Source: Candidatus Woesearchaeota archaeon (GTDB lineage: Archaea; Nanobdellota; Nanobdellia; Pacearchaeales; UBA284). Taken from it: a stretch of DNA of 64,000 bases. Positions within the stretch are counted from its first letter, which is position 1, and each line of letters opens with the position of its first letter. A program made the translations under genes and the position numbers. The notes below the pieces were generated by a model, which made no database searches, was not told the origin of the DNA, and was given only the letters and a program-made list of their open reading frames with translations. This document shows, in pieces, positions 11,069 through 26,395 of the stretch. The stretch covers positions 6,519-70,518 of the forward strand of contig CAYNFE010000004.1 in the NCBI GenBank assembly GCA_964396475.1, read 5' to 3'.

Positions 11069-11641
11069 ATGATAAAAGAAATTGATTATAAAGTCAGGAA
11101 ATATTCTAAATTACCTAAGAAATTTAAAACCCAAGTAGAAAAAATTTGTCATGAATGTTTTTATGCTAGAATGCCTAAAAGAGAAGTAAAAGAAAATAAA
11201 GACAAATATTGCAGTAAAGGTTATGCACACATCTTAGCGCTAGAAAATGATTCAGTTATATCAACACAGGAGCTTTTTAAAAGAAGTATTAAGTATAAAG
11301 GGAAAAAAATTATTCTTGGAGGACTGGGAGGTTTGTGCACTATCAAAAAAAGAAGAAAGAGAGGGATTGCAACAGTTTTATTAAAGAAAGGAATGGAAGA
11401 TTTGAGAAAGGAAAAATGTGAAGTGGCTTTTCTTTGCACAAATATTAAAGATCCTAAATTAGTGAGATTATATAAGAGATTTGGATTTGTAATCATGAAA
11501 CAACCTTATACCTTTATTGGAAAATCAGGTAAAAGATATATTGAAAAAAATGGTATGATTGCTCCTCTCAGATCCAAAACTAAATTCAATTTAATTTTAA
11601 AAAGTAAAAAAATACTTGATATTGGTTTTGGTGGTTTGTAA
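11069..11641 (+). CDS. GNAT family N-acetyltransferase
   Basis: Acetyl-CoA binding motif RRKRGIATVLLKKGME and the C-terminal LYKRFGF pattern. Confidence 0.65.
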   Translation: MIKEIDYKVRKYSKLPKKFKTQVEKICHECFYARMPKREVKENKDKYCSKGYAHILALENDSVISTQELFKRSIKYKGKKIILGGLGGLCTIKKRRKRGIATVLLKKGMEDLRKEKCEVAFLCTNIKDPKLVRLYKRFGFVIMKQPYTFIGKSGKRYIEKNGMIAPLRSKTKFNLILKSKKILDIGFGGL

Positions 11642-11678
11642 AGAATAATTTTTTAAGCCAGTTTTTCTTCTTACAGGG

Positions 11679-12698
11679 ATGAAAAAGAGGATAAAAGAAC
11701 CTCCTTATCCTAAGGTTATAGATGTCAGGAATTTATGGAGGGATTTTAAGGAACGAAAGAGAAAAGCAGGTTTTGGTGCAGCTTTAGGTGCACTTTTTTC
11801 TCGTAAATATGAGACTAAACATGCTCTAAAAAATATCTCTCTTGATGTATATAAGGGAGAAATTATTGGTTTGATAGGTCCTAATGGTGCAGGTAAGAGT
11901 ACATTAATAAAAATACTTACTGGAGTGTTATATCCCTCAAAGGGTTTTGTAAAAGTTCTTAATTTTGTGCCTTGGAAAGATCGTACAAAATATGTTCATG
12001 ATATTGGGGTAGTCTTTGGGCAAAAAACACAATTGTGGTGGGATATTCCGGCTGCAGATACTTACGAATTACATCGTGATTTATATGATGTTCCAAGAAA
12101 AGAATTTGATGATAGACTTAATAATATGATTAAGATGCTAGAAGTTGAAGAAGTTATTAAAAAACCTGTTAGACAGCTCTCCCTTGGAGAAAGAATGAGA
12201 TGTGAATTGATTTTGTGTTTGTTGCATAATCCAAAAATAGTGTTTCTTGATGAGCCTACCATAGGTCTTGATATTATTGCTAAAGATAAGATAAGATATT
12301 TTATTAAGGACTTTAATAAAAGATATAAAACAACATTTATAGTCACAACCCATGATATGTCTGATATTGAAAGACTCTGTAAAAGAATAATCATTATCAA
12401 TAGAGGTTTGATTATTTATGATGGTTTAATTAATGATATTAGAAAGAAATTTGCGAATAGAAAAATAATAGATTGTAAGTTTTCAGAACCCCTTCTTGCC
12501 AGAGAGTTCAATTTTTCTGGTTGTACAATATTAAGAAGAAGAAAATACCAGTTAGTTCTAGAACTTGATTTGAGCAAAGCAAGAATACGTGATTTGATCA
12601 ATTATTTAATGACTAAGTATGGGGCTGATATTGCAGATATAGATATCAAAGAACCTCCGATTGAAGAAATAATTAAGCTGATTTATAAAAAGAAATAA
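11679..12698 (+). CDS. ABC transporter ATP-binding protein (ABC-2 type system)
   Basis: Walker A GPNGAGKST, signature LSLGERMR, Walker B VFLDEPT, H-loop TTHD. Confidence 0.9.
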   Translation: MKKRIKEPPYPKVIDVRNLWRDFKERKRKAGFGAALGALFSRKYETKHALKNISLDVYKGEIIGLIGPNGAGKSTLIKILTGVLYPSKGFVKVLNFVPWKDRTKYVHDIGVVFGQKTQLWWDIPAADTYELHRDLYDVPRKEFDDRLNNMIKMLEVEEVIKKPVRQLSLGERMRCELILCLLHNPKIVFLDEPTIGLDIIAKDKIRYFIKDFNKRYKTTFIVTTHDMSDIERLCKRIIIINRGLIIYDGLINDIRKKFANRKIIDCKFSEPLLAREFNFSGCTILRRRKYQLVLELDLSKARIRDLINYLMTKYGADIADIDIKEPPIEEIIKLIYKKK

Positions 12699-12707
12699 GA
12701 GGAAAAA

Positions 12708-13508
12708 ATGAGTATATTTTCTAAAATTTCCGGTATTTTGAAAACAGAATTCAAGATGATGACAGTTTATCGTTTTGAAATGGCTATCACCCTTATTGTG
12801 GGTCCTCTCTCTATATTGGTATTTTATTTCTTATGGCAAGCAATTTATGCTAATACAGGGGTTGATATAATAAGGGGATTCACATTTCATCAATTAGTGA
12901 CCTATTATATTGTAAGCTGGTTTGTGGGTATATTGAGTTATACACATATTGAAGATAGTCTAAGGCATGAAGTTAGACATGGAAGAATAATAAGAGATCT
13001 AGTAAAGCCAATAAATTACATATGGCTTCATTTTTTTACCACTATTGGTCATCGTTTATATGCTGTTATTATAGAGGTTATTCCTTTATTTATTATAGCT
13101 TTTGTTTTTTTTGCTGTTAAAGTTAATTTATCTTATCTTCCTCTTTTCATTCTCTCTGTGCTATTTGCTGCAATACTTACATATTTGATATCAGCAATTG
13201 TAGGCATGTCAGCATTTTGGCTTATACATAATAGAGGTATAATAAAAATAAAAAGAATCCTGTTGTATTTTATCTCTGGAGCAGTTTTACCTCTAACATT
13301 TTTCCCACAATGGTTCCAGAATCTTTCATTTTACATGCCATTTCAATATCTCACATTTGTTCCTATTAATATCTGGCTTGCTAAATATACTATCCCTCAA
13401 GCATTTCAATTTCTAGGAATTCAAATAGGATGGATTTTGATTTTTTACTTACTTTGTATATTTGTTTGGAAATCAGCAATAAAAAAAGTCACAGCAGTAG
13501 GAGTTTAA
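12708..13508 (+). CDS. ABC-2 family transporter permease
   Basis: Six-helix membrane protein immediately downstream of the ABC ATPase (9-nt gap). Confidence 0.7.
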   Translation: MSIFSKISGILKTEFKMMTVYRFEMAITLIVGPLSILVFYFLWQAIYANTGVDIIRGFTFHQLVTYYIVSWFVGILSYTHIEDSLRHEVRHGRIIRDLVKPINYIWLHFFTTIGHRLYAVIIEVIPLFIIAFVFFAVKVNLSYLPLFILSVLFAAILTYLISAIVGMSAFWLIHNRGIIKIKRILLYFISGAVLPLTFFPQWFQNLSFYMPFQYLTFVPINIWLAKYTIPQAFQFLGIQIGWILIFYLLCIFVWKSAIKKVTAVGV

Positions 13509-13509
13509 T

Positions 13510-14298
13510 ATGTTAGTAGGAAAATTTTTTAGGATATGGAAGAAAACAATCATCTTAGTATTTGAGATGTCAATGACTTATAAAGTTGGATTTTTTATCC
13601 TTTTACTCTCATTATTTCTAGGAGATCTTATTATTCCGATAGTAAGTGTAATCATATATGCTATTAGTGAAGGAATTCCTAACTGGACATTAGCTGAATT
13701 TATTCTTTTTCAAGGCACCCTAATTCTTGTTATGGGTATATGGCATACTTTATTTGCTTCTCTACTTGGAGAAACAATATCCTTAGTTCAAGAAGGAACT
13801 TTTGATAAAATATTATTAAGGCCTTTTTCAAGTTTAGGATTTTTGACTGCAAATAGTTTTGAGTTTGATGGTCTTGCAGAAGTGGCCGCAGGTTTATTTA
13901 TTATAGGCTGGGCCCTTATTCAGTTAGAACTTTTCAGTTTTATGTTATTACCTTATTTTTTGATAATTATTTTGGCAGTTTTATTTGAATATGCTCTTAC
14001 TATTATAGCTTCTTCCTTAGCATTTGTATTTACAAAAACTTGGCGTCTCTTTGAATTAATAACTATAGTTGAAAAATTTTCACGATATCCTCTTGATATA
14101 TACACAGTAAGCATGAAATTTTTACTTACATTTATGGTTCCTGCAGCAATAGCTTCTTATTATCCTGCTTCAATACTTTTAGGTAAACAACCTCTTCTTA
14201 CAGTAGCATGGATAACTATCCCAGTAGTAATATTTTTCATTTTTTCATTATGGTTATGGAATTTTTTATTAAAACGCTACACTTCAGCAGGTGGTTAA
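13510..14298 (+). CDS. ABC-2 family transporter permease (second subunit)
   Basis: Polytopic membrane protein starting 2 nt after the previous permease, giving an ATPase + two-permease operon layout. Confidence 0.7.
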   Translation: MLVGKFFRIWKKTIILVFEMSMTYKVGFFILLLSLFLGDLIIPIVSVIIYAISEGIPNWTLAEFILFQGTLILVMGIWHTLFASLLGETISLVQEGTFDKILLRPFSSLGFLTANSFEFDGLAEVAAGLFIIGWALIQLELFSFMLLPYFLIIILAVLFEYALTIIASSLAFVFTKTWRLFELITIVEKFSRYPLDIYTVSMKFLLTFMVPAAIASYYPASILLGKQPLLTVAWITIPVVIFFIFSLWLWNFLLKRYTSAGG

Positions 14299-14563
14299 GC
14301 ATTAAATATATTTTATATATGGAAAAAATATATAAATAATAAACCCCTTAAATAAACCAGAGAATGAGAATAAGGAAAGGAAATAACGAGACAGAAGATA
14401 AAAAACAGACAAAGAAAGACAAAGAATTAGAGGAACAAGAAGAACTAGCGAAAGAAAAAGATAAGATATTTTTTGATTTCTATACTCCGTAGCCAAAAGC
14501 CTTGAAATAGGCAATATTTTAAAAATCTATTTTGTTTATTTATTCTATAGAAAAGAGGTAAGA

Positions 14564-15019
14564 ATGAAAATTCGCAAAGCAATATTTAAAGATATCAAAA
14601 GAATAAATGAAATACTTTTAGAAGGTTCTATACAAGAGCATACTTTTCAAAATCCTGGGAATAAAAAGAAAATAAAGGAAAATGTTACTGAGGATTTTAA
14701 CCATCACAAAAAAGCAATAAAAAAGAAAATACAAGACAAAAAACAATGTTGGATTGTTTTGGAAGAAAAGGGAGTGGTAGTCGGTTTTGGTTCTACACAT
14801 ATTAAGGGAAACCAGGGATTTATTGAAAGTGTTTATATTACTAAAGAAGCTCAAAGAAAAGGTTATGGTAAAAAAATCCTAAAATATCTAGTTAATTGGC
14901 TAAAATCAAAAAAAGTTAAACATATTGAGTCATATTTACTTGTAAAAAATATTCCTTCTCTTAAATTGCATGAAAAGTTAGGGTTTAAACCATATTTATT
15001 CAAGATGAGGTTGAAATGA
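14564..15019 (+). CDS. GNAT family N-acetyltransferase
   Basis: QRKGYGKKILKYLV acetyl-CoA motif and LHEKLGFKP tail; SD-like AAGAGG upstream of the ATG. Confidence 0.75.
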   Translation: MKIRKAIFKDIKRINEILLEGSIQEHTFQNPGNKKKIKENVTEDFNHHKKAIKKKIQDKKQCWIVLEEKGVVVGFGSTHIKGNQGFIESVYITKEAQRKGYGKKILKYLVNWLKSKKVKHIESYLLVKNIPSLKLHEKLGFKPYLFKMRLK

Positions 15020-15786
15020 AAAAAGTAGTTATCATCTTTGGCTTTCCTAAAAATATTGTTGAAAAAAGACTGAAATTCTATACTCAATTTTCTAATAAAT
15101 TCAAAACAAAAGTAATTAAAATAAATGATTTAAATTTTAAAAGTAAAATAGATAACATAAAGATTGATTTTTTATATGCTTTTTGTCCTAAAAGAGATAG
15201 TGCCTATCTAGATAGTAAAAAATATATTAAAAAAAATTATAGGGAAAAAGTACCATTACCAGCAAAAGAAGTCTGTAAAAAAATAAAGAATGCAGATTTT
15301 GTTTTATTCTTTGGGATTTGTGGAGGATTAAAACAAAAGATTAAGATTGGAGATATTTTTTTACCAAATACTTTTTATGAACTTAATATAAAAGGAATTC
15401 AAGTTAGCGAGAAAGAAGCTAAAACCTTGATTCCAAAAAACAAAATAATTTATCAAAATGAGCTAATAGGAAAATTAAAAGGAAGGAGAGCTGAATGTTT
15501 AACCATTAATTTATCAACTTGGGAAGGTAATTTTAAGAACCCAGAAATGAAACCAATGTTTGAAAAACGCTTAGCTAAAAAAATAGATATAGTAGAAAAA
15601 GAAACATACCAAATTGTAAAAAATTTAAAAAATAAATTTCCTTTAGGAATTGTGTTGATATGTTCAGATGCTCCAAAAGAGCCTTGGAATGAAAAATTTC
15701 CATGGAAAAATAAAGCCAACAAAATTTATTTAAAAGTTATTCAACAAATTATAGAAAGAGGAAAAAATGAAAAAATTAACAATTGA
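15016..15786 (+). CDS. Hypothetical protein, possibly of the nucleoside phosphorylase/nucleosidase (PNP_UDP_1-like) fold
   Basis: Segments VVIIFGFP, FFGICGGL...IGDIFLP and DIVEKETYQIV resemble the IIGAM / GxAGGL / xEMEg motifs of MTA/SAH nucleosidase-type phosphorylases. The start overlaps the upstream stop (ATGA). Confidence 0.35.
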   Translation: MKKVVIIFGFPKNIVEKRLKFYTQFSNKFKTKVIKINDLNFKSKIDNIKIDFLYAFCPKRDSAYLDSKKYIKKNYREKVPLPAKEVCKKIKNADFVLFFGICGGLKQKIKIGDIFLPNTFYELNIKGIQVSEKEAKTLIPKNKIIYQNELIGKLKGRRAECLTINLSTWEGNFKNPEMKPMFEKRLAKKIDIVEKETYQIVKNLKNKFPLGIVLICSDAPKEPWNEKFPWKNKANKIYLKVIQQIIERGKNEKINN

Positions 15787-16321
15787 AATGAAAAAAATAG
15801 AATCTCTTTCAAAAAAAGAGATAGATTTCATGAATAAGCAGAGAAAAAGAGAATATGGCAGTAAAGAAATTATAGATTTTAAAAAAACAGATAAAAAAGC
15901 AGTTTTCTTTTTACTTAAAGACGATAACAAAATAATGGCTTTTGGGATGTTAAAGCTAGTAACTATTGAATATCAAAATAAGAGATATCATATTCTTGGT
16001 ATGGGTAGAGGAATGGCTGTAAAGAAAGGAATGGAATATGGAAGGATATTAAACGCTGCAAGAATATATTACATTAAGAAAAAGGACAAAACTTCTCTTG
16101 CCTTTACAGCAAGGAAAAATTTGGGTTTTTTTGAAAAAGCAGGATTTAAGACTGCCAAAGATTTAGCATTAAGATTTAGATATAAATATGCAACTCCAGA
16201 ATATGAAAAAAAAGAATTAGAAGAGGGGGGAGATGGAATTTATTATGAAGGTAAAGACAAGCTCATAAGCAAAATGTTAAATACTAAATCTCTTGCATAT
16301 ACAAATGTGCCTTTTTGGTAA
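15767..16321 (+). CDS. GNAT-like acetyltransferase domain protein
   Basis: KGMEYGRILNAA and FFEKAGFK segments resemble GNAT motifs A/B; AAGAGG lies 5 nt upstream of the ATG. Confidence 0.5.
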   Translation: MKKLTIEMKKIESLSKKEIDFMNKQRKREYGSKEIIDFKKTDKKAVFFLLKDDNKIMAFGMLKLVTIEYQNKRYHILGMGRGMAVKKGMEYGRILNAARIYYIKKKDKTSLAFTARKNLGFFEKAGFKTAKDLALRFRYKYATPEYEKKELEEGGDGIYYEGKDKLISKMLNTKSLAYTNVPFW

Positions 16322-16325
16322 AAAA

Positions 16326-17066
16326 ATGACAGAAAAAGCAATAAAAAAATGGTGGGAAGCACAGGCGAAAGATTTTCAAAAGAAATTTGGAGCTATTGTA
16401 GATGTTAATTATGGTCCTGGAGCTCCAAATGAAAGAAGATTGAAATTATTAGGAAATATTAAAGGAAAAGAAATTTTAGAAATAGGATGCGGTGGGGGAC
16501 AATGTACAGTTTACTTTGCCAAAAAAGGAGCTAAAGTTACAGGTGTAGATTTATCTGAAGAACAATTGAAATTCGCTAAGAAATTAGCTGATAAACATAA
16601 AGTTGATATTAAATTTATACAGGGAAGTTTTCAAAATTTAAGTAAATTTAAATCTAATAGCAAAGATATTGTATTTTCTGCTTATGCTTTACAATATTCT
16701 CCTGATTTATTGGAAGTATTCAAACAAGTTAAGAGAATTCTGAAGAAAAACGGCTTGTTTGTGTTTAGTTTTGATCATCCTATCTGGAAAATGATTAATT
16801 ATAAGACTCTAAAAGTAGAGAAGAGCTATTTTAAAATCGGAAGATATGAGGAAAAATTTTCTAGCGGAACTTTTGTAGGTTATTCTCACACTATTGAAGA
16901 CACCTATGACAAACTTGTAAAAGCAAATCTGTTTGTAGAAAGAATTATAGAACCTGATTCAAGAAAAAGATATCCTGGGGATACACTATATAATGTTTGG
17001 GATTATAAAGCTAAAACTTTGAAAATGGTTCCTCCAACAATCATCTTTAAATGCAGAAAAAAATGA
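16326..17066 (+). CDS. Class I SAM-dependent methyltransferase
   Basis: Motif I ILEIGCGGGQCTVYFAKKGAKVTGVDLS. The start is moved to the ATG at 16326 (MTEKAIKKWW) because the track start overlaps the upstream gene. Confidence 0.85.
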   Translation: MTEKAIKKWWEAQAKDFQKKFGAIVDVNYGPGAPNERRLKLLGNIKGKEILEIGCGGGQCTVYFAKKGAKVTGVDLSEEQLKFAKKLADKHKVDIKFIQGSFQNLSKFKSNSKDIVFSAYALQYSPDLLEVFKQVKRILKKNGLFVFSFDHPIWKMINYKTLKVEKSYFKIGRYEEKFSSGTFVGYSHTIEDTYDKLVKANLFVERIIEPDSRKRYPGDTLYNVWDYKAKTLKMVPPTIIFKCRKK

Positions 17067-18367
17067 AAATAAATCAAATCCTAGAAGAAGTAAGTAAGAA
17101 AATTACTCCATCACAGAAAGAAAAGCTTGCCTTAGATGAAAATCTCTTGGAATTTGAAAGAAAATTAAGACCTAAACTGAAAAAATATAAAGCTAAATTA
17201 TTTGTAGGAGGCAGTCTAGCAAAACAAACACTTATAAAAAGAGATACAAAATATGATATTGACATATTTATTATGTTTAATTATCAGAAATATAAAAATA
17301 AAAGCAAGGAACTATCAAAATATCTCTCAAGCATTCTAAAATCAGCAAAATTAAAATATATTTTACTTAAAGGTTCTAGAGATTATTTTCAATGTAATTT
17401 TAAAGGCCTGCGTATTGAACTTATTCCCATTCTTGAAATTAAAAAACCATCTCAAGCTCTTAATATTACTGATATTTCCCCTCTTCATGTAATTTATATT
17501 TTAAATCAGATAAAAAAGAAAAAGAAAATTGCTAATGAGATAAGAATTGCTAAAGCTTTTTGTTATGGAACTGATTGTTATGGAGCTGAATCCTATATCA
17601 AGGGCTTTTCTGGCTATGTTTTAGAAGTTTTAGTTTCTTATTATGGTTCTTTCTTAAAATTTGTAAAGGCAGCTTCTAGATGGAAAATTCCTACAAAAAC
17701 AGAGAATAGGATAGTTATAGATCCAAGAAGGTATTATAAGAGTAAAAACAAAATTTTCAAAGAATTAAATGAGGCTAAGCTAAAATCTCCTTTAATTTTG
17801 ATTGATCCTGTACAAAAAGAAAGAAATGCTGCAGCAGCTCTAAACTTCAAGACTTTTATTAGATTTATCAAAGCATGTAAAGATTTTCTTGCAAAACCTT
17901 CTGAGAAATTTTTCTTTAGGGAAGCTTTTGATATTAATGCTTGGAAAAAGAAAGCAAAAAAACAGAAAGCAAAATTAGTTATTCTAAAAACTATAAGTAC
18001 AAAAAAGAAAAAAGATATTGCTGGAGCCAAACTAAAGAAATTCTATGAGTTTCTCTTTTTTTATATGAAAAAAAATGGCTTTAAAGTTCTTAGTGGAGAA
18101 TTTGACTTTGATGAGAAGACAATACAATCTAAATTTTATTTTATTTTGAAAGAGCCTTCTAAAATTTATATTATAGCTGGCCCTCCTATTGATATTGATG
18201 TTAAATATATCAAAGCATTTAAGAAAAAATGGAAAGGAGCTTTTGTTAAGAAAAGAAGACTTTATGTTAAAGCAAAGAGAAAAATTTCTAATGTTAAACA
18301 GCTTGTTAAAATCATATCTAAAGCTCAGTTAAAGGAAATGGGTATTAAAGAAATAAAATTAGTATAA
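17051..18367 (+). CDS. cca: CCA-adding tRNA nucleotidyltransferase, archaeal class I
   Basis: Pol-beta nucleotidyltransferase motif GGSLAKQTLIKRDTKYDIDIFIMF and a length of 438 aa typical of the archaeal CCA enzyme. The ATG at 17063 is an alternative start. Confidence 0.75.
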   Translation: MQKKMKINQILEEVSKKITPSQKEKLALDENLLEFERKLRPKLKKYKAKLFVGGSLAKQTLIKRDTKYDIDIFIMFNYQKYKNKSKELSKYLSSILKSAKLKYILLKGSRDYFQCNFKGLRIELIPILEIKKPSQALNITDISPLHVIYILNQIKKKKKIANEIRIAKAFCYGTDCYGAESYIKGFSGYVLEVLVSYYGSFLKFVKAASRWKIPTKTENRIVIDPRRYYKSKNKIFKELNEAKLKSPLILIDPVQKERNAAAALNFKTFIRFIKACKDFLAKPSEKFFFREAFDINAWKKKAKKQKAKLVILKTISTKKKKDIAGAKLKKFYEFLFFYMKKNGFKVLSGEFDFDEKTIQSKFYFILKEPSKIYIIAGPPIDIDVKYIKAFKKKWKGAFVKKRRLYVKAKRKISNVKQLVKIISKAQLKEMGIKEIKLV

Positions 18368-20116: not shown

Positions 20117-20219
20117 CTCTTTTTAATTTTATTTCTTTTATATACATATTTAAAAAGAAAATGATATAAAAATATTTGCATTGAGTTAAATTTTTAATGT
20201 CTTTTTTCTCTATCTAGCT

Positions 20220-22865
20220 ATGGAAAAAGAGGTAGTGGAAAAAGGGAAGATTTTTTGGCATGCTCTTAGTTCTGATAAAGCATTTGAGAAATTAAAAAGC
20301 AATATTGATGGACTTAGTGATTCTGAAGCTTCTGAACAGCTAAAAGTTTATGGTAGTAATGAACTAAAAAAAATAAGAAGATTAGAACCCCTAAGAATTT
20401 TATTTGAGCAATTCAAGTCTTTTTTCGTTATTCTGCTTATTCTTGCTGCTGTTGTTTCAGCTTTTGTCTCTCATTGGATTGATATGTATGTTATCCTTGG
20501 TATCATAGTATTAAATGCTAGTATTGGTTTTTTTCAGAATTATAAGGCTGAGAAATCTATACAATCTCTTAAAAACTTGTTAGTTACCAAAGCTAAAGTG
20601 ATTCGTTCTGGAATCATGAAAGAAATATCAGCTTCTTATATTGTCCCAGGTGATATACTTGTTTTACAGGAAGGAGACAAGGTTGTGGCTGATTCTAGGA
20701 TTATAGAAACCAGAGACTTACAGACAAACGAAGCTGTTTTGACAGGAGAAAGTATGCCTATTAACAAGTTTTCAAAAATTTTAGATACAGAAACAGATAT
20801 TCATAATAGATTCAATATGCTCTGGAAAGGAACCTCTGTTGTTCGTGGTTCTTGTACAGCACTTGTTGTAGCTACTGGAATGAATACTGAATTTGGTAAG
20901 ATAGCTGGTTTAGTACAGAAGACCAGGGCAGAAAGAACCCCATTGCAAGTAAGGCTTGATAGTTTTGCTAAAAAAATAGGTCTTATTGTGATAATTTTAG
21001 CTGCCCTTATAGCAATTATAGGAATTTCTCTTGGTATTGATAAATTAAGTATGATTTTTACTGCAGTAAGTCTGGCAGTGGCTGCAGTTCCTGAAGGCTT
21101 GCCAGCAGTAATTACTATTGGTCTGGCTATAGCTGTTCAAAGGATGTATAAAGTTAAAAGTTTGATTCGAAAATTGCCTGCTGCTGAAACTTTAGGAAGA
21201 GTCACTGTAATTTGTACAGATAAAACAGGAACTATAACAGAGGAAAAAATGACAGTAACTGACTTATATTTTAATAATAAAATAATTAAAACTGGAAATA
21301 TAAGTAAAGTAAAAGACAAAGCTCTCAAACTAATTCTTAAAATAAATTGTTTATGTAATAATGCCCGCATTGAAAAAATAAAAGATAAGGAAAAAATAAT
21401 TGGTGATCCTACTGAAGCTGCTCTTCTTCATCTAGCTTCTGAGTTTGGTTTTGATAAAAAAATTCTGACTGAACAAGAGCCAAGAGTAAAAGAATTTGCT
21501 TTTACTTCCCAAAGAAAGATTATGTCTATAGTCAGAAAAACAGATTCTGGATTTGTGAGTTATGTAAAGGGTTCTCCTGAAATAATTTTAGAGAGATGCT
21601 CAAAAGAACTTATAGGGAATACAGCTATGAGACTTGTTTCAAGAAGAAGAAAAGAACTTCTTGCAGTGTATGAAGAGATGGCTTCACAAGGTTTGCGAGT
21701 TTTAGGTTTTGCCTACAAACCTGTTAGTAAGAAATTTTCACAAAAAGATGCTGAATCTGAACTTATTTTTGTAGGATTCCAAGGAATGTTAGATCCTCCA
21801 AGAGCTGAAGTCAAGGAAGCAATTAAAGCAGCTAAGGAGGCTAGGATAGCAGTTAAGATGATTACTGGTGATGCTAAGCTGACAGCTGTAGCAGTAGCAA
21901 AACAAATAGGTCTGTTTGGTGAGGCAATTGTTGGCAGAGATATTGAGAAAATGAATGATGAGGAGTTAAGATCTAAATTAAGGAATACTGTAATTTTTGC
22001 AAGAACAACTCCAGAACAAAAATTAAGGATAATAGAATTGCTCAAGAAAGAAAAAGAAATCGTAGCTGTAACTGGTGACGGTGTGAATGACGCTCCTGCT
22101 CTTAAGAGAGCTGATATTGGTATTGCTATGGGTATAAGAGGTACAGATGTGACTAGAGATGTTTCAGATATAATCCTTACAGATGATAATTTTGCTTCTA
22201 TAGCAAAAGCAGTTAAAGAAGGACGTCGTGTTTTTGATAATATAAAGAAATTCTCATACTATCTTCTAAGCAGTAATCTTGCTGAAATTTTCATAATTGT
22301 CTTTGCTCTGATTTTTGCTTCTCGACTTGGCTGGCCAACTATGCTAGCTCTTATTCCTATACAAATATTATGGATAAATCTCGTGAGTGATGGAATAATA
22401 GCCATTACTCTAAGTCTCGAACATCCTGAGGTAGATGTGATGAAAAGAAAACCAACAGAAGCTAAACTATTCACATCTGGAATTGTATTGATATGGTTTC
22501 TACTTGCCATACTTATAACTTTAGGCATTCTTTTCTCTATCAATATGATTACTGCCTTAGATGCAATAAAGCTCCAGACAATTGCATTCACTAGTCTTGT
22601 ATTCTTTGAAGGATTTAATGCAATTAATTTCAGGTCATTCAGACAATCTCTATATAAACTAAAGACTAACTGGATATTGCTTGGGGCCATAATAATATCA
22701 TTCATATTACAAATCTTGATTGTCCAAATACCATTCCTACAATCTCTTTTCGGAACTTCTTCACTAACATTCAAAGAATTTTCAATAATATTTTTAATTT
22801 CTATTTCAATACTATTTGCTGGAGAATTATTTAAATATTTAAAGCCTAGAATATTTAATAAATAA
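20220..22865 (+). CDS. P-type ATPase, Ca2+-transporting (P2 type)
   Basis: TGES, PEGLPAV, phosphorylation site ICTDKTGTIT and hinge TGDGVNDAPALK; 881 aa. Confidence 0.95.
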   Translation: MEKEVVEKGKIFWHALSSDKAFEKLKSNIDGLSDSEASEQLKVYGSNELKKIRRLEPLRILFEQFKSFFVILLILAAVVSAFVSHWIDMYVILGIIVLNASIGFFQNYKAEKSIQSLKNLLVTKAKVIRSGIMKEISASYIVPGDILVLQEGDKVVADSRIIETRDLQTNEAVLTGESMPINKFSKILDTETDIHNRFNMLWKGTSVVRGSCTALVVATGMNTEFGKIAGLVQKTRAERTPLQVRLDSFAKKIGLIVIILAALIAIIGISLGIDKLSMIFTAVSLAVAAVPEGLPAVITIGLAIAVQRMYKVKSLIRKLPAAETLGRVTVICTDKTGTITEEKMTVTDLYFNNKIIKTGNISKVKDKALKLILKINCLCNNARIEKIKDKEKIIGDPTEAALLHLASEFGFDKKILTEQEPRVKEFAFTSQRKIMSIVRKTDSGFVSYVKGSPEIILERCSKELIGNTAMRLVSRRRKELLAVYEEMASQGLRVLGFAYKPVSKKFSQKDAESELIFVGFQGMLDPPRAEVKEAIKAAKEARIAVKMITGDAKLTAVAVAKQIGLFGEAIVGRDIEKMNDEELRSKLRNTVIFARTTPEQKLRIIELLKKEKEIVAVTGDGVNDAPALKRADIGIAMGIRGTDVTRDVSDIILTDDNFASIAKAVKEGRRVFDNIKKFSYYLLSSNLAEIFIIVFALIFASRLGWPTMLALIPIQILWINLVSDGIIAITLSLEHPEVDVMKRKPTEAKLFTSGIVLIWFLLAILITLGILFSINMITALDAIKLQTIAFTSLVFFEGFNAINFRSFRQSLYKLKTNWILLGAIIISFILQILIVQIPFLQSLFGTSSLTFKEFSIIFLISISILFAGELFKYLKPRIFNK

Positions 22866-22883
22866 TAATAGATATAGAGCATA

Positions 22884-22908
22884 AGAATGAAAAAGAGGAA
22901 AGGTAAGA
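22884..22908 (+). repeat. 25-bp direct repeat, copy 1 (AGAATGAAAAAGAGGAAAGGTAAGA)
   Basis: Identical by eye to 24748..24772. A further AATAGATAT match lies upstream of both copies (22868.. and 24723..). Confidence 0.85.
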
Positions 22909-22928
22909 GTAATAGAAAAAAACCATAA
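22887..22928 (+). pseudogene. 13-codon remnant duplicating the 5' end of the GGDEF gene (MKKRKGKSNRKKP*)
   Basis: The first 7 codons are identical in DNA to the start of the gene at 24751; the sequence then diverges and stops. Confidence 0.5.
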
Positions 22929-22943
22929 TTTAACATCTATAAA

Positions 22944-24749
22944 ATGGGTGAGAATAAAACTATTCACAAGTTTAAAATTGAGGAAGAAGAACTCCGTATA
23001 CTCCTAAGTTCAAATAATCATCCATTTCCAGAACTAAAAAAATTTCTTGAAAATCCTCATTTATTTTTAAAAAGTAAAAAAGGGAAAATTTTACTAACAC
23101 AAATTAAAAAAAAGTGCAAAAACCTTGGGGAAATCCCAAAACTTAATCAGAAACTATATGATACATATGAATCAGGGGGTTTAAGGGCTCCATATGAAAT
23201 TCCATATGATGCTCGTAGAGAAAACCTATCTATTGCTGTTTTTTATTATTTATTTGGCTATAATAAATATTTGAAAATTATAGAAGAATATCTTAATGCA
23301 ATTTGTGAGGAACAAAGTTGGATTCCACCTTGGCACGAAGGCAGAATACTTGAAATTTATTCAGCAGATACAGCATTTATATTAGCTGAAATTTTATTTC
23401 TATTACAAGATAGATTGCACAAAAATATTATCAAAAAAGTTAAGGATTCTATTAATGAAAAAGTATTCAACCCATTTTTGTCCAATCCCTTAAAAAGTAA
23501 ATATGATAATGACGTAGATAATTGGACAGGTGTAACTAACAGCGAGATTGGATGTGCATTTTTATTAATTGAAGAAGATGTTAATAGAAAATCAAAAGCT
23601 ATTCACAAAACTATTGAAGGATTAAACAATTTTATTAAGAATTCATTCAATGAAGATGGAAGTACAACAGAAGGGATTCTTTATTGGAATTATGGAATCA
23701 GTATGTTTTTGATTTTTTCTGAAATGTTGAGAGCTTCAACTAACAATAAAATAGATCTATTTAAGATAAAAAAAATTAAGAATATTGCTTCTTATCCTTC
23801 AAAGATACAGCTTAGTCTTAAAGTTTTTGCAACATTTTCAGATTCTTCAGAAACTGGAACAATTTTCCATCCAGGAATTATTCAAAGAATGTCCGAAAGA
23901 TCCCATGAGAAATCTTTGTTAAACTTAATAACTGAACCATTTATTATTGATTGGTTTGGAATTACGACTCTTCTAAGGTATATTTTATGGTGGAATGGTA
24001 AATCTATGAAAGCTGTTAAGATTTCTGATTCATACTTACCTGATGCCGGAATAGTTCGCCTGACTAATAATATAAAGAAGGGGGAATCAATTAACTTGAT
24101 TGTCAAAGCAGGAGATAATGGAGAGAGACATAACCATAACGACGTCGGAAGTTTTATTATTAATATTTCTGGTGAAAATTTTATTACCGACCCTGGAAGA
24201 GGACTATACAGTAAGGGATATCATGATTACCATAATTCAGAAAGATACAAAAATATTTTTACAAATTCTTATGGGCATAGTGTTCCAAAAATTGATAATA
24301 ACCTTCAATCTGCAGGAAGAAAATTTTCTGGTAAAATATTGTCCGTTAAAAAAGAAAAGAATCTAAAATCCGTAAATCTTAAAATGTCGGAGAGCTATAA
24401 TATTCCTAAGTTGAAAAATCTCATTCGTAATATATCAATTATTAATAATAACCTAATATTAAAGGATAAATATTTATTTTCAAACAATTCTCCGAAAATT
24501 GAAGAGGCATTCATTACTTGGCTTGATGTTATTGTAAGGGGGAATACAGCAATCATCTCTGGTAAGAATAACAAACTTATACTTACAATTAAAGAACCAA
24601 AAAACACCCGATTTCATCTAGAAAAATTGAAAAAAGAAAGTAGAGAAAATAAAAAATCTAGAATATTAAAGAGAATAAGTTTTATAATCCCAAAAACTAA
24701 CAGCAACAAAGTTAATATAAAAATAGATATGAATCTAAAGATTGAATAG
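22944..24749 (+). CDS. Heparinase II/III-like (polysaccharide lyase-like) protein
   Basis: KAGDNGERHNHNDVGSFIINISGENFITDPGRGLYSKGY matches the HxHxDxxSF...G...D.G..Y core of the heparinase II/III family. 601 aa, with no obvious signal peptide. Confidence 0.6.
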   Translation: MGENKTIHKFKIEEEELRILLSSNNHPFPELKKFLENPHLFLKSKKGKILLTQIKKKCKNLGEIPKLNQKLYDTYESGGLRAPYEIPYDARRENLSIAVFYYLFGYNKYLKIIEEYLNAICEEQSWIPPWHEGRILEIYSADTAFILAEILFLLQDRLHKNIIKKVKDSINEKVFNPFLSNPLKSKYDNDVDNWTGVTNSEIGCAFLLIEEDVNRKSKAIHKTIEGLNNFIKNSFNEDGSTTEGILYWNYGISMFLIFSEMLRASTNNKIDLFKIKKIKNIASYPSKIQLSLKVFATFSDSSETGTIFHPGIIQRMSERSHEKSLLNLITEPFIIDWFGITTLLRYILWWNGKSMKAVKISDSYLPDAGIVRLTNNIKKGESINLIVKAGDNGERHNHNDVGSFIINISGENFITDPGRGLYSKGYHDYHNSERYKNIFTNSYGHSVPKIDNNLQSAGRKFSGKILSVKKEKNLKSVNLKMSESYNIPKLKNLIRNISIINNNLILKDKYLFSNNSPKIEEAFITWLDVIVRGNTAIISGKNNKLILTIKEPKNTRFHLEKLKKESRENKKSRILKRISFIIPKTNSNKVNIKIDMNLKIE

Positions 24750-24772
24750 AATGAAAAAGAGGAAAGGTAAGA
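24748..24772 (+). repeat. 25-bp direct repeat, copy 2
   Basis: Identical to 22884..22908; it spans the heparinase-like stop codon and the GGDEF start codon. Confidence 0.85.
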
Positions 24773-25392
24773 AAGAAGAAAGGTATGTTAAATTAGATGA
24801 GATAAGTAAACAAATTAAGAGTGAAATAAAAAAGCCAAAACCAGAAGTTCGAGCTCTTGGAAGACTTTTTAATGAGCTCTATTCATATGCAACAAGAGAT
24901 CATCTAACTGGTGTATTCAACAGAAGAATTCTTGATGAATTACTTGGTAGAGAGATGGAAAAATCAATAAGACAGGGATTGCCTCTAGCTGTTATAATGC
25001 TTGACATTGATAATTTTAAACAATATAATGATACATATGGTCATTTACAAGGAGACATGGCTCTTAGAGCTATAACAAAAACAATTCAAAGATTAACGAG
25101 AAAAGAAGATTTTGTTGCGAGATATGGAGGAGAAGAATTCATTATTGTACTTCCAAACACGAAACTGAAAAAAGCAAGAGAAATAGCTGAAAGAATAAGA
25201 AAAAAGATTACAGAAACAAAAATAAAAGCAATAAGTAAAAGGATTGAAAAAGGATTTGAAAAAATTACAGTAAGCATGGGCATATCTAAATTAACAGAAG
25301 CAGGAATACAATATATGTTAGATCAGGCTGATATTGCTCTATACAAAGCAAAAGAAAAAGGCAAGAATCAAGTTGTTATGATTAATGATTAA
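24751..25392 (+). CDS. GGDEF domain diguanylate cyclase (stand-alone, with a short N-terminal helix)
   Basis: RDHLTGVFNRR, the active-site variant RYGGEEF, an RKED I-site exactly 5 residues upstream of it, and a C-terminal ALYKAKEKGKNQV. The start is placed at the ATG at 24751 rather than the TTG at 24742. Confidence 0.9.
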   Translation: MKKRKGKKEERYVKLDEISKQIKSEIKKPKPEVRALGRLFNELYSYATRDHLTGVFNRRILDELLGREMEKSIRQGLPLAVIMLDIDNFKQYNDTYGHLQGDMALRAITKTIQRLTRKEDFVARYGGEEFIIVLPNTKLKKAREIAERIRKKITETKIKAISKRIEKGFEKITVSMGISKLTEAGIQYMLDQADIALYKAKEKGKNQVVMIND

Positions 25393-25438
25393 TATAATTT
25401 TAAAAAAGAGGAAATAAAAAAATAATTAAAATAAAAAA

Positions 25439-26395
25439 ATGTTATGGATAAATTTGTTATTTTTTGTTCTTTCATGCGCGATTCTTTTTGGAAGCGGAAC
25501 CTTTCTTGTTAAAAGTCTTGGAAAAATTTCAGTATTTTTACGTATTAGTGAATTTATGGCAGCCTTCATAATTATGGCAATAGCAACCTCATTGCCAGAA
25601 ATTTTTGTCGGAATAAGTTCTGCTCTAGCCAAAAATACTGCTATTAGTTTGGGAAATGTTATTGGTTCTAATATAGCTGATTTTGCTTTAGTAGGAGGTA
25701 TAATGATTTTATTGGCCCGAGGAATAAAAATTAAAAGAAAAGATATTAAAATAGATTCTTTATTTCTTATTCCAATAGTAATTTTACCACTTGTCTTATT
25801 CTTTATAGATGGTTCATTAAATTGGATTGATGGGATAATACTTATAGCAGCATTTTGTTTTTATTCTTGGCGCATTCTTAAAAGAAGAAAGAAATTCAAG
25901 AAACTCCTGGAAGAAAAAACAAAAATAAAGAAAAATGAAATAGTGCTTTTTTCTATAATTTTTATTGCTTCTTTAGTTCTTCTCTTCTTAAGTTCTTATT
26001 TTGTCGTTAAATATGCCACTGTCTTATCTCTAGAATTAATGTTGCCCCCTATTTTTATTGGTCTATTCTTGGTTGCCATAGGCACTTCATTACCAGAACT
26101 TGCTTTTGAATCTAGGGCTGCACAACTCGGACGTGGAGAAATGGCTTTAGGAGATTTAATAGGAAGCGTTGTTGTAAACTCAACTCTTGTTCTTGGCATA
26201 ACAGCATTAATCTTCCCTATTACTGCTAACCTAATGCTTGTTCTTGTAAGTGCAATATTCCTTGTCTTGTTAACATTTCTATTCGCAACCTTCATGCACA
26301 GTGGTTCTAGATTATATGTAATGGAAGGAATTGCTCTCTTGTTGCTTTACGTTTTCTTTGTCTTTATTCAATTTTATTTAGGGTTTGTTCAGTAA
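25439..26395 (+). CDS. Ca2+/cation antiporter (CaCA family, YrbG/NCX-like)
   Basis: Two alpha-repeats, GNVIGSNIADFALVGG and GDLIGSVVVNSTLVLG, separated by a basic loop; 318 aa. Confidence 0.85.
   Translation: MLWINLLFFVLSCAILFGSGTFLVKSLGKISVFLRISEFMAAFIIMAIATSLPEIFVGISSALAKNTAISLGNVIGSNIADFALVGGIMILLARGIKIKRKDIKIDSLFLIPIVILPLVLFFIDGSLNWIDGIILIAAFCFYSWRILKRRKKFKKLLEEKTKIKKNEIVLFSIIFIASLVLLFLSSYFVVKYATVLSLELMLPPIFIGLFLVAIGTSLPELAFESRAAQLGRGEMALGDLIGSVVVNSTLVLGITALIFPITANLMLVLVSAIFLVLLTFLFATFMHSGSRLYVMEGIALLLLYVFFVFIQFYLGFVQ

Follow-up and report, generated by a model that had tools for sequence, protein, structure and literature searches.

The junction between a P-type Ca2+-ATPase gene and a GGDEF gene, located in a 64,000-nt stretch of DNA from a Pacearchaeota (DPANN) genome (contig CAYNFE010000004.1, positions 6,519 to 70,518 of the forward strand; hereafter the window, to which coordinates refer unless another sequence is named), is interrupted by a heparinase II/III-like gene. 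This locus is probably the scar of one horizontal gene insertion of the recombinase-independent kind described as "insertion with long target duplication" (Nobusato 2000; Furuta 2010). As read from the sequence, the locus comprises an inserted segment, a relative whose empty site holds the target in single copy, and an exact duplication of that target around the insert, with neither mobility genes nor terminal repeats. The joining itself would have been performed by host repair or replication functions in an illegitimate, microhomology-type reaction, with no dedicated recombinase. The genome carrying the window (G000) is a metagenome-assembled draft of 609,805 bp in 8 contigs that is 89.6% complete. 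Its closest complete relative is a sister species, "Candidatus Pacearchaeota archaeon Pace33H" (CP061211.1; G002). Comparisons were also made with G001 and G003, which belong to the genus of G000, and with G016, G012, and G006, which belong to three other genera in the family.

The duplicated sequence is the 25-mer AGAATGAAAAAGAGGAAAGGTAAGA, which was found, as the initial annotation had reported, exact at 22884-22908 and again at 24748-24772. Searching the genome for other copies returned these two sites only, both in the window and in the whole assembly, and the 25-mer is not a genome-wide start motif. No further copy was present in the window even when 3 mismatches were allowed, and no comparable pair was obtained in any of 100 dinucleotide-preserving shuffles of the window. 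Genome-wide, exact direct repeats of ≥ 18 bp lying within 6 kb of each other were otherwise accounted for by paralogous gene pairs, tRNA gene pairs, and low-complexity tracts, leaving the 25-mer alone outside these categories. Elsewhere, it was found only at the orthologous site of G002 in a collection of 185,579 species, and it was found in no metagenome contig. The 25-mer has 23 purines out of 25 positions on one strand and is without dyad symmetry or self-complementarity.

The right copy of the repeat (24748..24772, forward strand) carries the functional start codon of the GGDEF gene at 24751. That gene (24751..25392, forward strand) encodes a diguanylate-cyclase-like protein of 213 aa (Pfam GGDEF, 2.5e-48; TIGR00254) and is the interrupted target. 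Its product shares 91% amino acid identity with the G002 orthologue across residues 1-211, and the orthologue also begins MKKRKGK, which agrees with the earlier assignment of the true start to the second copy. The left copy (22884..22908, forward strand) corresponds to GGDEF positions −3 to +22 severed from the gene, and matches the G002 copy at 24 of 25 positions. It opens a remnant ORF, MKKRKGKSNRKKP*, which could be read directly at 22887..22928 (forward strand) as the 13-codon dead end that had been described: GGDEF codons 1-7 are followed by inserted sequence (ATG AAA AAG AGG AAA GGT AAG AGT AAT AGA AAA AAA CCA TAA). The stub and the heparinase-like ORF lie in one frame (3 divides both 22887 and 22944), with one TAA and five codons between them, so that the new gene could be tied to the former GGDEF start signals through termination-reinitiation or rare readthrough. 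The identity of the two repeat copies dates the event weakly, with a 95% bound of ~0.11 differences per site, compared to a raw divergence of 0.25-0.34 at four-fold sites between G000 and G002.

The empty site is preserved in G002, where the ATPase gene ends in TAA and the GGDEF start follows 8 bases on, within AGAATGAAAAAGAGGAAAGGAAAGA, a single copy that matches the 25-mer at 24 of 25 positions. A BLASTN comparison to G002 gave two colinear high-scoring segment pairs at 82% identity, covering window positions 20170-22908 and 24745-26389. In G002 the corresponding segments are neighbors with a 28-bp overlap, such that both repeat copies align on the single G002 copy. The ATPase gene on the left flank (20220..22865, forward strand; Pfam E1-E2_ATPase, Cation_ATPase_N, and Cation_ATPase_C) encodes a protein with 84% amino acid identity to its G002 orthologue, which itself lies immediately 5′ of the GGDEF gene. 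Between the ATPase gene and the left repeat copy lies a native spacer of 18 nt (22866..22883, forward strand) that resembles the G003 spacer ..AATATAGAGAAGAATG; the G002 spacer before the repeat copy is only 5 nt. On the right, the GGDEF gene is followed by a Na+/Ca2+ exchanger gene (25439..26395, forward strand; Pfam Na_Ca_ex), which is colinear with G002 and lies downstream in the same co-directional string. Direct ATPase-GGDEF adjacency with no insert was found in six relatives from four genera (G002, G001, and G003; G016, G012, and G006). The proposal that the two genes were once neighbors, and that a cassette was inserted with duplication of their junction, is supported by this synteny and by the overlap of both flanks on the one G002 copy of the 25-mer.

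The distribution of the heparinase-like gene was surveyed in the 40 nearest relatives and in two samples of ~400 genomes each, one drawn from the order and one from the class. It was absent from all 40 relatives, and G000 alone carried it in both samples. The relatives have the two flanking genes adjacent and lack the gene between them, which makes insertion in the lineage of G000 a far more parsimonious history than a series of precise losses. Had the three-gene arrangement been ancestral and the heparinase-like gene lost from the relatives by recombination between the 25-bp repeats, exactly one repeat copy would be left behind, as is the case in G002. This history is very improbable: with the gene confined to G000 among ~800 sampled genomes and the adjacency spread over four genera, it calls for many independent precise losses, the origin of the repeats would still require an insertion, and the nearest homologues (63-65% identity, in unrelated contexts) suggest an origin outside Pacearchaeota.

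The inserted segment spans 1,839 bp (22909..24747, forward strand) and consists of a 35-nt leader and one ORF with no 3′ tail; it has no counterpart in G002. On the left, the break lies between the first and second bases of GGDEF codon 8. Its right end falls within the stop codon of the heparinase-like gene (T|AG), the T coming from the insert and the AG from the opening dinucleotide of the right repeat, and the GGDEF start is regenerated one base past this stop codon. The string of ATPase, new gene, GGDEF, and Na+/Ca2+ exchanger genes remains co-directional and intact. Since the ORF stop overlaps the right repeat, 0 nt is available for an attC site, and the segment does not have the form of an integron cassette.

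These junctions also bear on whether the 1.84-kb segment could be a piece of another organism spliced in at a shared k-mer during assembly, as might be considered for a metagenome-assembled draft in 8 contigs. A mis-join does not make a second copy of a unique 25-mer, and the foreign fragment would need the 25-mer, which is lineage-specific, at both of its ends. The junction gives the inserted ORF an in-frame stop and leaves the GGDEF gene intact, and the composition of the insert matches the host; an artefact of this kind is scarcely credible. The composition comparison proposed in the initial annotation gave no foreign signal, with the insert unremarkable among G000 ORFs in GC content (16th percentile), GC content at third codon positions (57th percentile), and codon usage (23rd percentile).

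No transposase or integrase is encoded in the insert, as had been noted at the outset: its sole credible gene is the ORF with the Hepar_II_III_C domain, and the neighbors are transporter and GGDEF genes. Its antisense ORFs have no family match. A 225-aa antisense ORF at 22259-22936 was rejected as spurious, having no family match and not being open in G002. Terminal inverted repeats were not found, the best end-to-end inverted match being 8 nt and internal (shuffled mean 7.3, 95th percentile 9.5), and the insert termini did not recur anywhere in G000 or G002.

The initial annotation had also pointed to a 9-mer, AATAGATAT, shared by the sequences upstream of both repeat copies. It is present as described (22867-22875 and 24722-24730), but it was rejected as a component of the scar. 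The two occurrences are out of register, 17 nt upstream of the left repeat copy and 26 nt upstream of the right, and each is native to its surroundings. The left one belongs to the spacer, with G003 having ATATAGAG..AAGAATG at the same place; the right one is heparinase-like coding sequence, encoding a conserved C-terminal KIDM within 18 nt that are identical to the homologue at locus L038. The probability that random 40-nt windows of G000 share a 9-mer is ~0.016. The shared 9-mer is read as a coincidence.

The cargo gene (22944..24749, forward strand) encodes a predicted enzyme of 601 aa with a polysaccharide-lyase fold. It is placed among the heparinase II/III-like polysaccharide lyases by its match to Pfam Hepar_II_III_C (PF07940; 5e-10, 39.7 bits vs a cut-off of 24). 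Matches to the Protein Data Bank include the heparinase II/III-like structure 8r73 (8r73_A; 5e-28, residues 72-537) and a PL35 chondroitinase (1e-17). The protein aligns with its homologues from residue 1 and retains all 130 invariant columns of a 9-member alignment. All three proteins of the locus are singletons at 90% identity in a collection of 15 billion proteins.

A donor of the insert was not found among the homologues recovered, the best of which is 65% identical to the cargo. The nearest three (P0002-P0004, 63-65% identity) come from uncultured organisms and have neighborhoods that all differ, namely redox genes, a sugar-modification cluster, and a position downstream of a polysaccharide deacetylase; no flanking repeats were found at these three. 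Around six homologue loci (L034, L038, L039, L090, L091, and L092), no flanking repeat longer than 11 nt was found. A clade at 46-49% identity is bacterial, with a bacterial ribosomal/rpoA cluster beside P0008 and P0012 labelled Patescibacteria, and Chloroflexota homologues are 35-39% identical. Two of the nearest homologues are strong low-GC outliers in their own contigs (L034 6001-7788, 0.25 vs 0.38; L038 6001-7791, 0.30 vs 0.40), and these genes too look recently transferred, from a low-GC donor pool. Because of these two outliers, the heparinase-like gene seems to travel between small genomes. A viral vector was considered and is not supported, as viral contigs hold only relatives that are 24-28% identical.

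The class of insertion to which the locus is compared was defined by gene units with unique direct repeats, present in single copy in the empty-site genome, and with no mobile element (PMC2853133, PMC3031569). Earlier documentation covers only bacterial restriction-modification systems, and none of the cases that passed the screen was archaeal (PMC2853133). The present locus is alike in that a close relative lacks the gene-sized segment, the repeats are unique and align to one empty-site copy, the insert is without transposase or integrase, and one repeat overlaps the end of a neighboring gene. It differs in its DPANN archaeal host, in its polysaccharide-lyase-like cargo, which has no DNA-cutting activity and is no restriction-modification system, and in the 25-bp length of the repeat.

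The following course of events is proposed. In the ancestor, the Ca2+-ATPase gene would have ended a few bases before the GGDEF gene, as it does in today's relatives. Foreign DNA of 1,839 bp, made up of the 35-nt leader and the complete heparinase II/III-like ORF, would have been joined inside GGDEF codon 8. The target may have been opened with a 25-nt strand offset, or the replisome may have switched templates and returned 25 nt behind its departure point. Repair synthesis or fill-in would then have copied 25 nt (GGDEF −3 to +22) onto both sides of the insert, with the right copy rebuilding the GGDEF start and the left copy remaining as the dead 13-codon stub.

In natural transformation, illegitimate or homology-facilitated recombination usually deletes or replaces recipient DNA. 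The proposed event resembles such recombination in being a recombinase-free joining at identities of 0-3 nt, with which a possible A/AG overlap at the right junction fits, and it differs in that a clean 25-bp duplication is not the usual footprint. Reciprocal illegitimate joins at 1-3 bp have been described (PMC3031569). Because the spacer is so small (8 nt in G002), any insertion at this junction hits a gene, and the GGDEF gene would stay functional only where the duplication includes its start codon. Scars would be seen at gene boundaries because a near-spacerless genome tolerates only those insertions whose duplication rebuilds a gene end.

Scars of this kind, differing in sequence and in cargo, are also present at other sites in the genus, in line with the proposed account. 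In G002, the exact 19-mer ATTAGGGCTGTTTTAGAAT, which is the 3′ end of an alaS-like gene, is duplicated around a Fic-domain gene (296966-298003). The Fic gene (1.0 kb; 296978-297874, minus strand) lies within a zero-spacer, tail-to-tail alaS/leuS junction, and the right copy of the 19-mer keeps the ancestral GAATAA stop, abutting the leuS stop. In G000, outside the window (contig C2, 88685-89771), the alaS tail reads ATTAGAGCTGTTCTAGAATAA, and a decayed copy, ATAAGAGCTATTTTAGAATAA (18/21), lies 1,066 bp downstream. These repeats bracket a different insert of ~1.05 kb with ORFs of 76 and 250 aa. The scar is older and occupies the site of the Fic insertion of G002, which suggests a site that has been used recurrently.

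Another exact repeat in G002 is a 26-mer, ATAAACCAAAACCCTTAAATATTTCT, which brackets a 2.55-kb cassette (501145-503719; L071 1145-3719) containing a 170-aa unknown protein, a DndB-like protein, and a D12 Dam methyltransferase. Cassette GC content is 0.253, vs 0.319 for the G002 genome. The surrounding region (497-507 kb) has no counterpart in G000, and a second tyrosine recombinase of G002 (507090-507569) lies 3.4 kb from the cassette. In G003 (L084), a small gene adjoining a Fic/Doc-like ORF is bracketed by a 25/26 match to ATAAACCAAAACCCTTAAATATTTCT and a variant of that motif. The 26-mer was therefore rejected as a clean second case, no empty site having been found and the motif recurring in G003 in a different setting; it looks like a promoter-like motif at cassette boundaries. 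A whole-genome comparison of G000 with G002 revealed no other colinear indels with real flank duplication, and twelve further candidates were rejected as AT-rich alignment overhang in which the best exact repeat was ≤ 11 nt. A 38-bp exact repeat in G002 (639685-640767) was likewise rejected as an insertion scar. It lies upstream of two tandem two-gene paralogue units (140 + 182 aa and 139 + 186 aa), only one of which is present in G000 (C7 3522/3540), and represents a tandem duplication with a conserved leader.

The duplications around the three cassettes of the genus are thus 19, 25, and 26 bp long, and the insert ends are not shared. In all three exact-repeat cases, the last cargo ORF ends within ~7 nt of one of the repeat boundaries, the Fic gene ending inside the repeat.

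Several points weigh against insertion by host repair or replication functions as the account of the locus. The boundaries of the insert are tidy (a 35-nt leader and a 3′ end in the stop codon), and the Fic and DndB/Dam cassettes of G002 also end flush with the 3′ repeat, which random breakage does not predict; such ends could reflect a defined mechanism that moves cassettes, or trimming after the event. The alaS tail has served as a site in both G000 and G002, which could indicate site preference. Described cases of long target duplication have repeats that are mostly 45 to about 400 bp, and the operational screen used a cut-off of > 30 bp (Furuta et al., PMC2853133), which the 25-bp repeat falls below. 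Its length lies inside the 19-26 bp of IS1630. No conspecific strain of G000 was present in the databases searched. Finally, the staggered-break and template-switch variants cannot be separated by sequence alone.

The recurrent use of the alaS tail by different cassettes in G000 and G002 is what would be seen at a preferred att site, and it is one argument for a Campbell-type integration. In this scheme, a small circular DNA carrying the heparinase-like gene and a 25-bp att-like core would have undergone a single recombination with the GGDEF start, through homologous recombination or a recombinase supplied in trans, leaving the repeats as attL and attR in place of a newly synthesized duplication. 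Site-specific integration classically yields direct repeats around an insert whose arrival restores a gene end (scheme in PMC2853133), and the locus is like tyrosine-recombinase att elements in both respects. One tyrosine recombinase (PF00589) is present in G000, on another contig 4 contigs away (C1:32791-33267). It is, however, the single recombinase found in every genome of the genus, and the insert carries no integrase in cis. The core is asymmetric: with one strand polypurine, the 25-mer is unable to adopt the dyad symmetry that tyrosine-recombinase core sites typically show. It was present at no other cassette boundary, and its restriction to this locus and the G002 orthologous site means that a foreign circle would need 25 bp that match, by chance, the start of a lineage-specific gene. 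The insertion struck a protein gene at its 5′ end and not a tRNA gene, the "element" would be a single gene of 1.8 kb, and the other insertions in these genomes show, in part, unrelated repeat sequences and lengths. Taken together, Campbell-type integration is unlikely.

Repeat length is also the feature that would favor a non-autonomous, transposon-like cassette moved in trans by an enzyme with a long stagger, either IS30/IS1630-like or casposase/Cas1-like. The usual transposon duplications are < 10 bp, while those of IS1630, an IS30-family element of Mycoplasma, are quoted as 19-26 bp (PMC2853133). The similar duplications at three cassettes in the genus (19, 25, and 26 bp) and the tidy ends could be read in the same way. 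IS1630, however, has terminal inverted repeats, its own transposase, and many copies, none of which apply to the present insert; the element is single-copy, and its termini are unique, unlike those of the other cassettes. Neither an rve-type transposase (PF00665) nor Cas1 (PF01867) was matched in G000-G003, an absence that for the transposase is limited by the 89.6% completeness of G000. Mobilization of this kind is improbable.

Casposons leave duplications of 14-15 bp, and CRISPR spacer integration duplicates a whole repeat; both proceed by staggered attack by Cas1. The likeness to the present locus is that the duplication arises from widely staggered strand transfer. The differences are that the genus has no Cas1, and that the locus has no terminal inverted repeats, no CRISPR context, and a duplication of 25 bp.

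A broader idea, held only tentatively, is that DPANN archaea have a stereotyped way of gaining cassettes that is free of recombinase genes, with a 19-50-nt stagger, cargo placed flush with the 3′ copy, and typically a gene start or tail as the target, which the duplication would then restore. The heparinase-like insert and the Fic and DndB/Dam cassettes of G002 may be products of such a route. A dedicated mechanism is less likely but conceivable, given tidy cargo ends that random breakage would not predict. If true, this would be an undescribed insertion mechanism, different in kind from accidental illegitimate joining, and a main route by which ultra-compact genomes gain genes.

Insertion with long target duplication by host functions, the reading preferred here, would make the locus an unusually clean case of foreign gene uptake in a near-spacerless genome without loss of a resident gene, since the interrupted gene regains its start from the duplication. 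It would also extend this insertion class to an archaeal host and to cargo that does not cut DNA. The earlier cases, bacterial restriction-modification systems, were tentatively linked to the DNA-cutting activity of those systems (PMC2853133). Given an archaeal host and a cargo without such activity, the footprint is argued to be the work of host repair or replication, with the cargo playing no part in it. As a result of the event, a polysaccharide-lyase-like enzyme that is rare in this archaeal class now lies inside a Ca2+-transport/GGDEF string, where it is a concrete candidate for a function on surface or host glycans that an episymbiont has gained recently.

Regarding the target itself, GGDEF-domain genes are common in the family, being present in 22 of 41 relatives, several of which have 3-4 copies. 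In at least four genera, the orthologue of this GGDEF gene is syntenic with the Ca2+-ATPase gene, an arrangement that points to a conserved link between Ca2+ and cyclic dinucleotides in Pacearchaeota.

Elsewhere in the window, a 5.4-kb array of GNAT, phosphorylase-like, and methyltransferase genes (11641-17061) corresponds to only ~1.3 kb in G002 (G002rc 12150-13431) and is another lineage-specific block, without an exact flanking repeat of ≥ 18 bp. It lies upstream of the gene for a CCA-adding enzyme (17051-18367) of the archaeal type, which is consistent with an archaeal host.

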